From positions 32,001-96,000 of the forward strand of contig CAWJEN010000003.1 in assembly GCA_963841915.1 (NCBI GenBank): a stretch of 64,000 nt of DNA, given 5' to 3'. This DNA is from an uncultured Planctomycetota bacterium. Its GTDB lineage: Bacteria > Planctomycetota > Phycisphaerae > Tepidisphaerales > Tepidisphaeraceae. Shown piece after piece: positions 14,124 to 32,425 of the stretch. How positions within the stretch are numbered: position 1 is the stretch's first letter; each line of letters opens with the position of its first letter. The notes beneath the pieces are model-generated. The model searched no databases, was not told the DNA's origin, and saw only the letters and a program-made list of their open reading frames with translations. The position numbers and the translations under genes were made by a program.

Positions 14124-17100
14124 TCAAAGCTTCGCCAGATCCGCCTCGGCTTTGGCAAGCTGATCCCGCGTCTCTTGCACCAAGTGCGGGGGAGCCCGAT
14201 CGGTGTACCCCTTGTTGGACAAGCGGCCGGACAAGGCGGCGACCTGCTTCTGAAGCGCCGCCTTCTCCTTGGCGACGCGGTCGGCGTCGGCGGCCTTGTC
14301 CACGACGCCGCCGACGCGGATCGTTGTGTCGGCAGCCGTCGTTTCGGCCGCGTCCTCGACCGTCTCCTTCACCTCACAGTTGGCCCAAAGCTCAAGGGTC
14401 TGGCGCACATCGTCGGCCACCTCGACCGCGACCGGCACCGTCTGTCGCGGCGGTACCTTGTTCTCCGTTCGCACGCGACGCACCGCCTCGGCGATCTCGC
14501 GGACCCGCTCGATCGACGCCTCGGCCGCTTCGTCGGCAAACGTCACCGTCGGCCAGGCGGCGGTAATGCACCGCTCGTTTGCCGGCAAGTCGATGACGCC
14601 TTCGATGCCGCGCGTGGGCATGGCTTCGTTCAGTGCCCACCAAAGGCGTTCGCTGACGAACGGCATGATCGGGTGCATCAGTCGAAGCGCGCCGTCCAGG
14701 CAGGCCGCCAACGTCGCAGCGGCGGCGGCATCCTGGGCCTTCATCCGCGGCTTCGTCGACTCGACGTACCAGTCGCAGAAGTCCCGCCAGAAGAAGTCGT
14801 AGATGGCCGTCGCGTATCGGTCAAAGCGATAGTCGGCCAGGGCCGCGTCGCATTCGCGGACGGCCGCGGCGAGGCGCGACAGGATCCACCGGTCGGCGGT
14901 GGTCAGATCAATCTCGCCTGTCACATCGGCGTTGTGCAGGTTCGAGATGACAAACCGCCCGGCGTTCCAGATCTTGTTGGCAAAGTTGCGGCCGTGATCG
15001 AACTTGCTGCTCGTTGTGCCGGCCGCGGGTCGGTCGTCGGTCGCCGTCGCTTCACCGCTGGCGATGCCGTATGGGCTGACGCTGTGCTTGCCTTTGTGCT
15101 CCTGGATCGGCTTGAAGACGGTGTAGCCGCTGTTGTTGGTGAAGGTTTGGCCCGGGAAGGTCTCGCCGGTGTGCGGGTCGACGAGGTCGACGGGCAGGCG
15201 GACGTCCTGCGTGTGGGTCGTCATGCCGCAGAGCGTGAACCGCATGGCGTCGGCGCCGTGGGAGTCGATGACCGCCAGCGGGTCGACGCCGTTGCCGAGC
15301 GACTTGCTCATCTTCTGGCCGTGGCCGTCCTGGATCATCGCGTGGATGAAGACGTCTTTGAACGGCAGGTGCGACGCGTCCGCCCCACGCGGGCCCCGAC
15401 CGTGAGGGAGGGGTTCTGAATGAAGTTCTGAAAGGGTCGCTGGATCGAGTTCTGATGTCTGGCGGTCGTCCAGAACCCCTCCCTGACGGTCGGGGCTCGC
15501 GTGAGACTGTTCGACATCTTTTTTCGAGTCGGAGCGCTGCTCGTCGGGGTGGGCGAGGAGGTAGCGGTTGAACATGACCATCCGCGAGACCCACAGCGTG
15601 ATGATCTCGCGTGCGGTGCACAGGACGCTGGTCGGGTTCCACTGCTCGAGCGCGGGCGTGCGGTCGGGCCAGCCGAGCGTGCTCATCGGCCACAGGGCAC
15701 TGGAAAACCAGGTGTCGAGGACGTCGGGGTCCTGCTCAAATCCTGCCTTGTCCAGCTCACCAAGGAACTTGTCCGCATTGCTTGGGACGGCGTACTGGTA
15801 TCCCCACGAGCTGTCCGCTCGGCGATAGGAGTAGTACGGCGCGATGCCGTGCGGATCATCGGGATCGCCGAACGTGAGTTCATTGGGTTCCGTGCTCTCG
15901 CCCGGATCGAGGTCGCTCTGGTAAAGCGCCGACTGTGACCCGCTCCACACCGGGATCCGGTGCCCCCACCAAAGTTGGCGGCTGATGCACCAGTCGCGGA
16001 GGGCGGCGTTCCACTGCGTGTAGGTCTTGGCGTACCGGTCGGGCACGAACCGCAGCACGTCGTCGCCCAACGCGAACGATCCCTGCGAGCCCCGACCGTC
16101 AGGGAGGGGTTCTGATTCTGAGCGAGCCCCCGACACCCCTCCCTCACGGTCGGGGCTCGCATCGCTCTCGACGCTCTCGACGGACGCGGGGTTGAGCGGG
16201 CGCCCCTGACGATCGACCGTGTACCGGATCGCCCCCTCAACCGACCCCGACGTTTTGAGATAGCGCGTGCTCCCGTGACGGGTCCAGACCTTGCGCTCCC
16301 CGTCGACGAGCGACTCCTCTCGAAGACGACGCGTCGCGTACGCCTTGAAGTCCGTCATGACCTTCTCCGGCGTCGCGTCGGCCGACACGACGGCGTGCAG
16401 GTGGTTCGACCGCACGTGCAGCGCGTGAAGCGTCCAGCCGCGGTGTCGGCAGACGTCGACGATCGCGTCTTGCACCGTAATCCGCTGGGCCTCGTCGAGC
16501 TCCGTCGGCTCATGCTTGAGGCGGGCGAACTGGCGACGCTCTTCGTCTTCGTCGCCAACGAGGTAGGGCTCGCCCGGGATGTTGTGTCGTTTGGGGTCGG
16601 CGCTTCCGAGCTCGCGACCCTGGAGCCAGGTTCCGTAGGTCGTGAACGTGATGAGATACGAGAGGGTCTCCCGCGAGCCCTGAGCGTGAGCGAGGGGTTC
16701 TGAGCGAGAAGCGGAATCCCCTCCCTCACGGTCGGGGCTCGCGGGGATTTTCTCGCATCCCGTCAGTGCGGTGAGTGCGAGACCTGCGAGCGAATTCGCC
16801 GGGACGTCGGTGCCCTCGACCTTGCCGGTGTCGGGCATCCACGGAATCGGCTTCTGGACCGCGACGTACCACTGGTCACTCAGGTACGGCTCGACCGGCA
16901 CGTGGCTGCGGTAGCTGTGGCCGACGCTGTGGCGGTACGGGCGGACCTCCTCGAGCAGGTCGTGCTCCTTGAACCACGAGACGATCGCCTCGCGGGCGGC
17001 CTCGCGGGAGAGGCCGACGAACTGCCTGGCGGCGTCGGTCTCGGGCGTCCAGCCGTGTGCGTCGGAGATCGACGCGTCGGGGGCCATGATGTTGATGGCC

Positions 17101-18155
17101 GCAAGGCTGTGCCGCTGGCCGATGTCCCAGTCGTTGGGATCGTGAGCGGGCGTGACCTTCAGGAAGCCGGTGGCAAACTTGGCCTTGGGGTCGCTTTCAT
17201 CGCTCGGCATGACCACGTAGTCGTCCTCGACGATCGGGATCTCGCGGTCGACGATCGGCAGCAGGACCTTCTTCCCGCGCAACCCCGCCGCCCTCGGGTC
17301 GTTCGGGTTGATGGCGACGGCGGTGTCGCCGAGCATCGTCTCGGGACGCGTCGTGGCGACGACGACATACTCGAGTTCTCCGTCGCGAGCCCCGACCGTG
17401 AGGGAGGGGTCCGGGTCGCTCGAGGAAGACCCCTCCCTCACGGTCGGGGCTCGCGAGGTGCTCTCGGGTCGGGTCTCGTTCAACGGCGCGAGCGGATAAC
17501 GCAGGTAGTAGAACTTCCCATCGATCTCCTCGTTCTCAACCTCGTCGTCGGCGAGGGCGGTTTGGGTGACGGGGTCCCAATTGACCAGCCGCTTGCCGCG
17601 GTAGATGAGGCCGTCCTTGAAGAGGCGGAAGAAGGCCTCTCTCACGGCCGCGGCTCGTGGGGGGTCCATCGTGAAGGCGGTGCGTTCGAAGTCGCAGCTG
17701 CAGCCCATTGCCTTGAGCTGGCCGAGGATGACGGTTTCGTATTCGTCCTTCCACGCCTGGACCTTGCCGATGAACTGCTCGCGTCCCGGCTGGCCGGCCG
17801 CTTCGTCGAGCTTGTAGTCCTTCAGCGCCTTCTCACCCGCCGCCTGGAGCCGTTTGTCGACGACCGTTTGCGTCGCAATGCCCGCATGGTCGGTGCCGGG
17901 AATCCAGACCGCGTTCAGCCCCCGCATGCGGGCGTGACGCACCAGAATGTCCTGGATCGTGTTGTTCAGCGCGTGCCCGAGGTGCAGCGCAGCGGTCACA
18001 TTGGGCGGCGGGATGACGACGCTGAACGGCTCCTTGCTTGCGTCGGGCTCGGCGTGGAACAGCCGCTCGTCGTCCCAAACCTTCGCCACCTCGCTCTGCA
18101 CGGCAGTGGCGTCGTAACGGGGCGGCAGCTCGGTCGTCGGGGTCGTGTCAGACAT
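14124..18155 (-). CDS. valS: Valyl-tRNA synthetase, enlarged (about 1343 aa) by in-frame REP and transposase-domain insertions
   Basis: PPPNVTAALHLGHA (HIGH), GTDHAGIATQ, ATTRPETMLGDTA, DWCISRQLWWGHRIP, DVLDTWFSS, KMSKS, C-terminal coiled-coil arm. Confidence 0.97.
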   Translation of the reverse strand: MSDTTPTTELPPRYDATAVQSEVAKVWDDERLFHAEPDASKEPFSVVIPPPNVTAALHLGHALNNTIQDILVRHARMRGLNAVWIPGTDHAGIATQTVVDKRLQAAGEKALKDYKLDEAAGQPGREQFIGKVQAWKDEYETVILGQLKAMGCSCDFERTAFTMDPPRAAAVREAFFRLFKDGLIYRGKRLVNWDPVTQTALADDEVENEEIDGKFYYLRYPLAPLNETRPESTSRAPTVREGSSSSDPDPSLTVGARDGELEYVVVATTRPETMLGDTAVAINPNDPRAAGLRGKKVLLPIVDREIPIVEDDYVVMPSDESDPKAKFATGFLKVTPAHDPNDWDIGQRHSLAAINIMAPDASISDAHGWTPETDAARQFVGLSREAAREAIVSWFKEHDLLEEVRPYRHSVGHSYRSHVPVEPYLSDQWYVAVQKPIPWMPDTGKVEGTDVPANSLAGLALTALTGCEKIPASPDREGGDSASRSEPLAHAQGSRETLSYLITFTTYGTWLQGRELGSADPKRHNIPGEPYLVGDEDEERRQFARLKHEPTELDEAQRITVQDAIVDVCRHRGWTLHALHVRSNHLHAVVSADATPEKVMTDFKAYATRRLREESLVDGERKVWTRHGSTRYLKTSGSVEGAIRYTVDRQGRPLNPASVESVESDASPDREGGVSGARSESEPLPDGRGSQGSFALGDDVLRFVPDRYAKTYTQWNAALRDWCISRQLWWGHRIPVWSGSQSALYQSDLDPGESTEPNELTFGDPDDPHGIAPYYSYRRADSSWGYQYAVPSNADKFLGELDKAGFEQDPDVLDTWFSSALWPMSTLGWPDRTPALEQWNPTSVLCTAREIITLWVSRMVMFNRYLLAHPDEQRSDSKKDVEQSHASPDRQGGVLDDRQTSELDPATLSELHSEPLPHGRGPRGADASHLPFKDVFIHAMIQDGHGQKMSKSLGNGVDPLAVIDSHGADAMRFTLCGMTTHTQDVRLPVDLVDPHTGETFPGQTFTNNSGYTVFKPIQEHKGKHSVSPYGIASGEATATDDRPAAGTTSSKFDHGRNFANKIWNAGRFVISNLHNADVTGEIDLTTADRWILSRLAAAVRECDAALADYRFDRYATAIYDFFWRDFCDWYVESTKPRMKAQDAAAAATLAACLDGALRLMHPIMPFVSERLWWALNEAMPTRGIEGVIDLPANERCITAAWPTVTFADEAAEASIERVREIAEAVRRVRTENKVPPRQTVPVAVEVADDVRQTLELWANCEVKETVEDAAETTAADTTIRVGGVVDKAADADRVAKEKAALQKQVAALSGRLSNKGYTDRAPPHLVQETRDQLAKAEADLAKL
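15386..15503. repeat. REP doublet D inside valS (in frame)
   Basis: cacgcgggccccgaccgtgagggaggggttctg ... cagaacccctccctgacggtcggggctcgcgtg. Confidence 0.9.
16084..16161. repeat. REP doublet C inside valS, at the 3' flank of the RAYT domain
   Basis: tgcgagccccgaccgtcagggaggggt ... acccctccctcacggtcggggctcgca. Confidence 0.9.
16203..16664 (-). mobile_element. REP-associated tyrosine transposase (RAYT / IS200-like Y1 HUH) domain, in frame within valS
   Basis: YLITFTTYGTWL...HRGWTLHALHVRSNHLHAVV (HUH)...FKAYATRRL...KVWTRHGSTRYL...AIRYTVDRQG (candidate catalytic Tyr, YxxxQ-like); bracketed by REP doublets. Confidence 0.88.
16670..16745. repeat. REP doublet B inside valS, at the 5' flank of the RAYT domain (one arm divergent)
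   Basis: cccgcgagccctgagcgtgagcgagggg ... cccctccctcacggtcggggctcgcggg. Confidence 0.85.
17383..17456. repeat. REP doublet A inside the valS editing-domain region (in frame)
   Basis: Perfect 29-bp inverted repeat tcgcgagccccgaccgtgagggaggggtc / gacccctccctcacggtcggggctcgcga with a 16-nt loop. Confidence 0.92.
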
Positions 18156-18210
18156 GAGAACGAACCAGCGTAGAGCGACCGCCAATGCCTCAGCCGATAG
18201 GCTGGCGACG

Positions 18211-31739: not shown

Positions 31740-32425
31740 GGCGGCCGATCATCGGCATCACCCTTGACCACGAGCGGTCACGCGAGCGTTACGAGCTGAG
31801 TTACGCCGTTGTCGACAGTGTCGTGCTCGCCGGTGGCGATCCAGTGTTGTTGCCATTCCACGACGAGGCGACGCTGCCGACCTTCATCGACGGGTTGCTA
31901 CTTTCAGGGGGAAATGATCCCGATCCGGCGGCCTGGGGCGAGCCGTGGCACCCGGCCTGCAATCCGGTCGATCCTCATCGAGAGCAACACGAACGACGGC
32001 TTGCCCTGGAGGCTCGACGGCGGGGTGTGCCGACGCTCGGCATCTGCTTCGGCATGCAGGTCATGAACCTGATCGCAGGCGGAACGCTCGCCCAGCACCT
32101 GCCCGATGTCACAGGACGCAACGACCACGCCCGCGGCGACCTCGGCTGGAGACGGCGGCACGACGTGGCGATTCGCCCAAACTCCGTGCTCGCCCGGGCG
32201 TGCGGTGTCGTCGGTCTGAGCGTCAACACGAGCCACCATCAGGCGGTCGCTCGCGTGGGGCCTGGACTCGACGCGTCTGCGATTGCCGGTGACGGCGTGG
32301 TGGAAGCGATCGAGGATCGGCGGCGACAATTCTGGCTCGGCGTGCAATGGCACCCTGAACGGCTAGCCGCCGAGGAGACGCGACACCTACGCATCTTCGA
32401 AGCGCTCGTGCGGGCGAGCGCTTAG
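31736..32425 (+). CDS. Gamma-glutamyl-gamma-aminobutyrate hydrolase family (peptidase C26, class I GATase)
   Basis: RPIIGIT, DGLLLSGG, LGICFGMQ, VNTSHHQAV, GVQWHPE; GTGA overlap with the upstream gene. Confidence 0.9.
   Translation: MRRPIIGITLDHERSRERYELSYAVVDSVVLAGGDPVLLPFHDEATLPTFIDGLLLSGGNDPDPAAWGEPWHPACNPVDPHREQHERRLALEARRRGVPTLGICFGMQVMNLIAGGTLAQHLPDVTGRNDHARGDLGWRRRHDVAIRPNSVLARACGVVGLSVNTSHHQAVARVGPGLDASAIAGDGVVEAIEDRRRQFWLGVQWHPERLAAEETRHLRIFEALVRASA

Follow-up and report, generated by a model that had tools for sequence, protein, structure and literature searches.

A Y1 HUH transposase domain with REP flanks lies in frame within the only valyl-tRNA synthetase gene of an uncultured planctomycete

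Results

We analyzed a stretch of 64,000 nucleotides (hereafter, the window) from an uncultured Planctomycetota bacterium of the class Phycisphaerae, corresponding to positions 32,001 to 96,000 of contig CAWJEN010000003.1 in GenBank assembly GCA_963841915.1. The valyl-tRNA synthetase (ValRS) gene of this window, valS, contains a Y1 HUH transposase domain in frame, flanked on both sides by repetitive extragenic palindromic (REP) sequences, and it is the only valS in the source assembly (G000; 3,634,901 bases, 6 contigs, 93.8% complete). We think it likely that this unit is a REPtron, that its transposase is produced solely within ValRS as an internal domain, that the domain has kept its nuclease function toward REP sequences, and that its essential host protects it.

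The host gene is a single open frame on the reverse strand, uninterrupted as a first-pass annotation of this DNA, made from the letters alone, had stated. Its product of 1353 residues matches the Pfam families tRNA-synt_1, Anticodon_1, and Val_tRNA-synt_C, which represent the class I core, the anticodon-binding domain, and the ValRS C-terminal arm. That annotation had also allowed for a second, uninterrupted valS elsewhere in the genome, and a TIGR00422 profile search of the assembly found none. Only the valS frame passes the cut-off of 612.1 bits, with 805.9 bits summed, and the next-best match (230 + 140 bits, under the cut-off) is a 1078-aa frame that also matches tRNA-synt_1 and is presumed to be ileS. 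Aligned to the Thermus thermophilus ValRS 1GAX, the insert maps between chain residues 363 and 379, a region that we take to follow the editing domain and precede the second half of the catalytic fold. The features of the gene are as follows, with coordinates given in the window.

14124-18185, reverse strand: valS, the host gene, a single 1353-codon open frame
17385-17454, no strand assigned: REP doublet A, a solo in-frame REP doublet forming hairpin (REPIN) in the editing-domain region, encoding RAPTVREG...PSLTVGAR (residues 245-267)
16673-16742, no strand assigned: REP doublet B, a REPIN-like inverted pair and the upstream flank of the transposase domain, encoding ASPDREGG...EPLAHAQGS (residues 482-505)
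16182-16670, reverse strand: putative class 3 Y1 HUH transposase domain, similar to REP-associated tyrosine transposases (RAYT-like), 163 residues (ValRS residues 506-668)
16395-16403, reverse strand: HUH motif, His-Leu-His in SNHLHAV, read from the translation
16206-16223, reverse strand: Y-x4-Q motif YTVDRQ with the presumed catalytic Tyr, read from the translation
16085-16160, no strand assigned: REP doublet C, the downstream flank of the transposase domain, encoding ASPDREGG...EPLPDGRGS (residues 676-701)
15389-15500, no strand assigned: REP doublet D, a solo REPIN, in frame and immediately ahead of the KMSKS region (residues 896-933)

The insert proper (16084-16745) comprises doublet B, the transposase domain, and doublet C, and it is free of stop codons in the valS frame; the REP search and the translation bear out this arrangement, which the annotation had described. 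Its claim that the domain can be translated only within the ValRS frame also holds by our scan of open reading frames and start codons. There is no in-frame ATG, GTG, or TTG in the 60 codons ahead of the domain's first strand or in the domain's first 12 codons, and no stop codon in the valS frame after the domain. Stand-alone homologues in a 65-sequence alignment have a Met 2-5 residues ahead of the same first strand, and among embedded copies a Met within 12 residues upstream is found in only 2 of 58 ValRS and 1 of 35 alanyl-tRNA synthetase (AlaRS) copies.

The 25-nt REP sequence GCGAGCCCCGACCGTGAGGGAGGGG has 8 copies in the window at up to 3 mismatches, where 0 are expected (100 shuffles), and all 8 lie inside valS as the four inverted doublets A, B, C, and D. 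The doublets flanking the domain form hairpins as single-stranded DNA (B, -25 kcal/mol, z -5.2; C, -33.9 kcal/mol, z -7.8), in line with the REP flanks first reported. The same is true of doublets A (-39.1 kcal/mol, z -9.9) and D (z -7.1). Doublet A is missing from its site in the valS of G003, a genome of the same genus, and another repeat stands there in a second congener, G004.

Several lines of evidence identify the domain. Against Pfam Y1_Tnp (PF01797, cut-off 23), the excised stretch scores 29.3 bits (E 1e-6, profile positions 24-94 of 121), the whole ValRS protein 26 bits, and the genome search gave 30.6 bits. The translation contains YLITFTTYGTWL, NHLH, DFK, VW (VWT), and Y-x4-Q (RYTVDRQ); the annotation had named the first four of these motifs correctly but had given the tyrosine motif as YxxxQ. 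In the 65-sequence alignment, both HUH His residues are invariant (65/65), likewise one Gly and one Lys, and conservation of the Y-x4-Q Tyr and Gln is 90% or higher; none of these residues is missing from the valS copy. An AlphaFold2 model of a 220-residue stretch, based on an alignment of 64 stand-alone homologues, has a mean predicted local distance difference test (pLDDT) score of 83.5, with values of 89-98 in the core and 53-64 in the REP-coded ends, and the Tyr of RYTVDRQ lies on a C-terminal helix (166-178 of the model). Of the 30 Foldseek matches at E ≤ 0.001, those listed are all Y1 transposases (IS200, IS608, and ISDra2 TnpA and the E. coli RAYT 4ER8), with target-normalized template modeling (TM) scores of 0.52-0.67 for these matches. 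The Y1 HUH identity proposed at first is thus borne out by a Pfam score above cut-off and by the predicted fold.

The affiliation within this superfamily is less conventional. The domain reaches 29.7 bits with the NCBIfam IS200 model (cut-off 55) and 29.4 bits with the NCBIfam RAYT model, REP_Tyr_transpos (cut-off 80). Because both scores are under their cut-offs, the domain is a Y1 HUH enzyme that is neither a canonical IS200 TnpA nor a canonical RAYT, and its motifs NHLH, WT, and YTVDRQ suggest assignment to class 3 TnpA-Y1. The initial description as RAYT-like therefore stands as far as a Y1 HUH domain with REP flanks is meant, and fails as to membership in the canonical RAYTs. No other copy of the domain was found at E ≤ 0.01 in the 3.63-Mb assembly of G000. 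One other gene in G000 passes the Y1_Tnp cut-off, a stand-alone gene of 246 aa with its own ATG (L002:1351-2091; G000:C6:1462938-1463678). It is unrelated to the valS domain, has an HWH motif, and scores 52.2 bits with the NCBIfam RAYT model (cut-off 80), and the genome REP search found no REP of the valS type adjoining it.

How ValRS might tolerate such a passenger is suggested by a 1200-residue AlphaFold2 model of the synthetase, based on an alignment of 53 other ValRS sequences, in which confidence is high for both the core and the transposase domain. The pLDDT falls below 50 in nine segments. Four of these (237-268, 477-505, 671-706, and 896-934) coincide with doublets A, B, C, and D, and the remaining ones lie elsewhere, including a loop of the transposase domain (522-542). 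The low values at the doublet-coded residues suggest that the repeats serve as floppy linkers and that the domain is a separate module. Predicted disorder in both linkers (pLDDT 28-50) would also suit proteolytic release, in which the fusion is translated, the REP-coded linkers are cut, and the cell obtains a free transposase and a ValRS assembled from two pieces. Class I synthetases that are split and function as a pair of chains are known, and release would demand the same common frame as a stable fusion. Still, we regard it as quite unlikely, given that the junctions have no conserved cleavage motif, the linkers vary in sequence and length between genomes, and no feature of the data calls for cleavage.

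The insert is not an isolated case. Alignment of relatives, a genome survey, and protein clusters show that it is old and widespread in the class. The domain has a match at E ≤ 0.001 in 31 of 61 related genomes (a set that includes G006, which is unpublished, has no insert, and supports none of the conclusions), and the closest matches are in very long frames. An insert at the same position is present in the valS of the congeners G003 and G004 and of G009 and G029, which belong to other genera of the family; all four align end to end with valS of G000, at 51-68% identity. In a phylum sample of 401 genomes, 27 have a match at E ≤ 1e-25. Besides G000, only G450 and G424 have matches in frames longer than 1000 aa, and both of these are valS with the same insert site. 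They represent two further families of the class, and the insert is thus found in six other genomes and three families. Stand-alone genes of 165-400 aa account for the remaining matches in the phylum sample, and one family has as many as five of them in a genome. Genomes of family f69 (e.g., G167, G258, and G395) carry the class 3 family as stand-alone, multi-copy genes, up to five per genome, and these copies look more like insertion sequences than like single-copy RAYTs.

The insert position appears in a profile search as a general break point for insertions in the class. In four genomes (G019, G020, G036, and G008), valS has no domain and carries at the same site a short variable insert ending in a REP-like HGRG-type peptide, which may be read as a scar or a solo REP. 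The valS of the congener G001 (3 contigs; L026, G001:C1:1598500-1606500) has the same insert at 83-84% identity and is spread over three reading frames; the frame breaks could be indel errors of long-read assembly or the mark of a broken gene.

Protein databases extend the range of hosts. A search of longer proteins gave 121 domain matches at E ≤ 0.001, and in a full scan of protein cluster representatives, 2510 passed E ≤ 0.001, 1497 passed E ≤ 1e-10, and 126 passed E ≤ 1e-30; the best 150 representatives are mostly stand-alone proteins of 150-290 aa. We assigned hosts to 127 domain-bearing proteins of at least 287 aa by BLAST against masked references. ValRS accounts for 58 clusters, 57 with the domain at the G000 site and one, from strain RAS1, with it at another site, and AlaRS accounts for 36 clusters, at two sites. 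The other hosts are DUF1156 methylases (5), MmeI-like proteins (4), HrpA (3), nucleotidyltransferases (3), and GlnE, a GFO/IDH oxidoreductase, a PF18135 protein, an N6 methylase, and a DinB-like protein (1 each); 13 are unassigned. Several of the domain-bearing proteins are on contigs of 1.4-4.8 Mb, with some of the ValRS clusters on contigs of 1.4-3.7 Mb, and their sources are Phycisphaerae or Planctomycetota by name. Two AlaRS proteins (P0002 and P0003) carry two transposase domains each, at the two sites. In the 1481-aa ValRS of RAS1 (P0030), a strain in culture, the off-site domain lies amid arrays of tandem REP-coded repeats of the EPLPHGRGSE type.

The active site is conserved across these embedded copies. 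The His-x-His, Lys, Trp, Tyr, and Gln are all kept in 57/57 ValRS and 38/38 AlaRS copies. Among the other embedded copies (n = 33), the first His is present in 33, the second His in 31, the Tyr in 32, and the Gln in 32, and among stand-alone proteins (n = 130), both His are present in 130, the Tyr in 122, and the Gln in 117. For the closest pair, G000 and G003, the ratio of nonsynonymous to synonymous substitution rates (dN/dS) is 0.083 in the domain vs. 0.27 in the aligned host columns. These data bear on two further explanations, an assembly chimera or a dead relic drifting neutrally, which we hold to be exceedingly improbable. REP repeats can mislead assemblers, and no public sequencing run contained this stretch; yet the same junctions recur in independent assemblies from several sources, including multi-Mb contigs and the named strain RAS1. 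As for a relic, it would hardly keep its catalytic residues in 57 of 57 copies and a dN/dS of 0.08.

The domain and its host have also diverged together. Across 53 full-length ValRS, pairwise identities of domain and host core are correlated (r 0.57; Mantel test, 0/2000 permutations), with mean identities of 54% and 59%, respectively. REP-like peptides flank the domain in 53/58 ValRS and 35/35 AlaRS copies, vs. 5/221 control windows, and the five ValRS copies without them carry another repeat type. In the DNA itself, doublets flank the domain in G000, G003, and G004, and single inverted REPs do so in G009 and G029. In the four genomes G000, G009, G029, and G002, the flanking REP type is the genome's own dispersed family: GAGCCGCGACCGTGAGGGAGCG occurs about 100 times in G009, with 24 exact matches, G029 has 28 copies of its own REP variant, and the congener G002 has 99 copies of the G000 type.

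Long retention at one site over at least three families, strong purifying selection, and a domain that evolves nearly as slowly as the ValRS core would all suit domestication, in which the HUH domain was recruited for a host function (e.g., binding of structured nucleic acids or regulation of the enzyme) and no longer serves the repeats. RAYTs are, moreover, generally viewed as domesticated transposases (PMC5581495 and PMC8266576). We nonetheless find domestication rather unlikely. The hosts of the same domain are unrelated to one another and include AlaRS (with two sites), HrpA, and GlnE as well as methylases, an oxidoreductase, and a nucleotidyltransferase. Its REP flanks are nearly always kept, match the dispersed family of the genome, and change together with the domain, and it has moved between host genes with its nuclease residues all kept. 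A role specific to ValRS accounts for neither the hosts, the REPs, the moves, nor the nuclease residues.

Movement between genes is suggested by the phylogeny. We built a FastTree phylogeny of 258 rows and a quick IQ-TREE phylogeny of 172 domain segments. In the latter, the oxidoreductase copy of G002 groups with the G000 and G003 copies (support 99), three HrpA copies group with one ValRS copy (99), the N6 methylase copy groups with a ValRS copy (95), and the second-site ValRS copy of RAS1, GlnE, and others fall inside the main AlaRS group (95). Given these strongly supported groupings of mixed hosts, the unit has apparently moved between genes while in frame. As to a single origin of the valS insertion, both trees resolve too poorly to count entries into valS.

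The oxidoreductase copy (L018:5066-6832; G002:C115) is of the same transposase lineage as that in valS of G000, with 66% identity and REP doublets on both sides. It forms an in-frame fusion to the C-terminal end of a Gfo/Idh/MocA oxidoreductase, on an 11-kb contig with at least 11 REP copies. No valS over the cut-off was found in the 89%-complete assembly of G002. The hrpA genes of G002 and G004 (L019, G002:C268; L020, G004:C115) contain a related domain in frame, at 50-52% identity, flanked by repeats of a different type that encodes ATRHDREG...ALPHGRAS. In G000, hrpA carries a solo REP doublet alone, and its position differs.

The REP family as a whole shares the intragenic habit of the insert. 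With up to 3 mismatches allowed, G000 contains 44 REP copies, including 15 exact ones; allowing up to 4 raises the count to 48, distributed over 25 loci. Eight of the 44 are in valS, where about 0.05 would be expected from the gene's 0.11% share of the genome. Nineteen of the 25 loci lie in frame and free of stops inside genes that are Pfam-named or otherwise long: four in valS, three in carB, three in a proline dehydrogenase/aldehyde dehydrogenase (putA-like) gene, two in an amine-oxidase-type (phytoene-desaturase-like) gene, and one each in lysS, hrpA, cstA, a vWA protein gene, an amidohydrolase gene, a GNAT-like gene, and a 612-codon frame without a Pfam match whose product is similar by eye to that of this GNAT-like gene. 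One more lies at a frame change in fumC, so 20 of the 25 are inside genes, and the other five are apparently extragenic (one ahead of groEL, one ahead of an ABC ATPase gene, and three placed between genes by the layout of open reading frames). The reading frames used give ASPDREGG...PLPHGRGS or RAPTVREG...PSLTVGAR, and the TGA-bearing frame of the first REP arm is unused in G000. We considered selection for readable REP sequence and dropped the idea, as a stop in one of the six frames of two arms is, by rough estimate, about what chance gives at this G+C content.

REP doublets concentrate in a few long housekeeping genes of G000. Both carB (G000:C4:55349-59278) and the putA-like gene (G000:C6:1470777-1473155) have three in-frame doublets with only host sequence between them. 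In fumC, which encodes a class II fumarase (L033:426-2136; G000:C4:136425-138135), the frame changes at a degenerate doublet (L033:991-1060). The N-terminal part is in a frame (426-1007) that ends in a stop, and the rest, with Pfam Lyase_1 and FumaraseC_C, is in another (907-2136). Possible explanations are a pseudogene, an error in sequencing, and insertion out of frame.

The in-frame placement of these loci bears on whether the insert is removed before the mature protein is made, by hairpin-guided RNA splicing or processing, ribosomal bypass, or intein-like protein splicing. The very stable flanking hairpins could bring the ends of the insert together, and inteins are likewise found in frame in essential genes. 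Removal is nonetheless very improbable. RNA-level removal or bypass would make a common frame needless, but every one of the 58 ValRS and 36 AlaRS clusters has an open insert. This argument from the frame is the main support for translation of the insert, because such processes would give dozens of independent copies, and 19 of the 25 REP loci, no reason to stay open and in frame. Rfam gave no intron or ribozyme, only sub-threshold hairpin matches on REP doublets (best 37.7 bits, against a gathering score of 80). A Pfam scan of ValRS contained no Hint or intein family, the fold is that of an HUH enzyme, and the junctions in five genomes have no conserved Cys, Ser, or Thr nucleophile.

Discussion

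The annotation had offered three fates for the insert, namely retention as a fusion, post-transcriptional removal, or domestication, and the evidence favors a translated fusion with a conserved active site. We infer that the fusion is translated, that it acts as a nuclease on REP sequences, and that the host protects it. The stretch would then be a complete REPtron, with a transposase reading frame bracketed by its own REP repeats and encoding an enzyme of class 3, sharing strand and frame with valS and located in what is probably a variable loop that separates the editing domain from the second catalytic half. Because it has no promoter, start, or stop of its own, the transposase would be made only as approximately residues 481-701 of the 1353-residue ValRS. 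The REP arms would be translated as flexible linkers rich in Pro, Gly, and charged residues, and the transposase would fold on its own, as an HUH module attached to the synthetase. The fusion would work as a single-strand DNA nuclease/ligase that recognizes REP hairpins, maintaining and spreading the 25 REP loci of G000, most of which are also in frame inside genes. As an essential gene, valS would supply steady expression and would shield the element, in that a frameshift, a nonsense mutation, or a sloppy deletion in the element would kill ValRS. Persistence would in this way resemble that of inteins, without splicing.

Several observations weigh against this reading. The family scores are modest (29 bits for Pfam Y1_Tnp), both NCBIfam models stay under their cut-offs, and a single REP arm folds weakly (z -0.5). 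G000 has only 44 REP copies. In pairs other than G000-G003, synonymous sites are saturated and dN/dS ranges from 0.14 to 0.64, with three pairs at 0.44-0.64. The congeners G000 and G004 have similar host divergence and carry different domain and REP lineages at the same site, with a domain identity of 55%, vs. 81% between G000 and G003; inheritance is therefore not simply vertical. The IQ-TREE phylogeny is poorly resolved (support <80 on 73 of 162 inner branches), and the ValRS copies in it are not one clade, with 11 changes, 5 of them forced by well-supported branches. Two genes indicate that insertion is not always harmless: fumC, the sole counter-example to the in-frame rule in G000, and the valS of G001, in three frames. 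PMC6006769 states that further experiments are required, and we found no report of tested activity for a class 3 enzyme. Public sequencing runs comprised three DNA metagenomes (5-7% of sampled words each) and no RNA run, and none contained this stretch. Metagenome contigs at 80% likeness cover only the conserved valS flanks and come from other organisms; some of these contigs skip the insert, and they have no bearing on G000.

The unit resembles the REPtron or REPIN-RAYT systems of E. coli (TnpA-REP, 4ER8) and Pseudomonas in having a single-copy Y1 HUH enzyme, inverted REP flanks, and the same REP dispersed as inverted doublets, as well as in long-term inheritance. It differs in that the enzyme is encoded only in frame within an essential gene, with no gene to itself, and in that 20 of 25 REP loci are inside genes. 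Unlike the two REP superfamilies described in PMC3733652, its REPs have no GTAG/CGTC tag at the 5′ end, which reads GCGAG or CAGAG. Also close are the class 3 TnpA-Y1 enzymes (Quentin 2018, PMC6006769), which share NH[VL]H, W[TA], and Y-x4-Q, occur in Planctomycetes, have atypical hairpin flanks, and are described as intermediate between insertion sequences (IS) and REPtrons. The 5′ CnGA foot of class 3 fits the flanking REPs of G004, G009, and G029, which begin with CAGA; the G000 type begins with GCGA. The survey covered stand-alone class 3 genes (median 178 aa) and discarded over-long proteins as fusions or annotation errors; the valS domain is embedded, exactly the form that was set aside.

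Comparison with other intragenic elements is also instructive. Di Nocera 2013 (PMC3733652) reports that intragenic REPs occur in genes including tRNA synthetases, adding 20-30 residues, and both these and the Rickettsia palindromic elements cited there are in-frame palindromic repeats, often dimers. Doublets A and D, like the remaining REP loci read in frame, add to the examples of this known phenomenon. In those descriptions, however, the repeats are alone inside genes, never with a partner transposase. Inteins with homing endonucleases are similar in being selfish nucleases in frame in essential, conserved proteins, where imprecise loss is lethal; unlike them, the valS insert lacks a Hint fold and conserved residues at splice junctions and gives no indication of splicing, and the passenger apparently stays in the mature protein. 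The IS200/IS605 TnpA proteins (IS608 and ISDra2) give the best fold matches, and the Y-x4-Q resembles that of class 1. The insert departs from IS200/IS605 elements in scoring under the IS200 cut-off, in having no IS ends and no tnpB, and in being single-copy in G000. A full-text literature search found no description of a transposase that is itself in frame inside a host gene, although supplementary tables could list such proteins, and a term search of the main texts of PMC6006769, PMC3733652, and PMC5581495 found no in-gene transposase either.

REP/RAYT systems are usually seen as intergenic repeats served by a domesticated transposase with a gene to itself. The transposase described here lacks such a gene and has apparently been carried for a very long time within the frame of enzymes that are indispensable to the cell, which makes the insert a concrete, testable case of a mobile element that is hard to delete without any splicing machinery. 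A broader proposal is that HUH transposases without genes of their own may be active in-frame passengers of ValRS, AlaRS, and HrpA in Planctomycetota, hopping with their REP ends between permissive loops; to us, the case for it is evenly balanced. Translation as a fusion predicts that living cells contain chimeras of about 150 kDa that join the nuclease to ValRS or to AlaRS. If such a guild of gene-less HUH enzymes is real, it would be a third way of hiding in essential genes, beside inteins and self-splicing introns but free of splicing, with a host proteome that permanently contains synthetase-nuclease chimeras. Surveys that drop over-long transposase matches as fusion errors, as in PMC6006769, can miss a real lifestyle. 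The permissive loops of the synthetases may also serve protein engineers as sites for domain insertion. Because of the insert, many Phycisphaerae synthetases are 300-500 residues over-long and bear mixed or generic names such as "class I tRNA ligase family protein", and one automatic annotation name from the Joint Genome Institute (JGI) reflects the double identity of such a protein.

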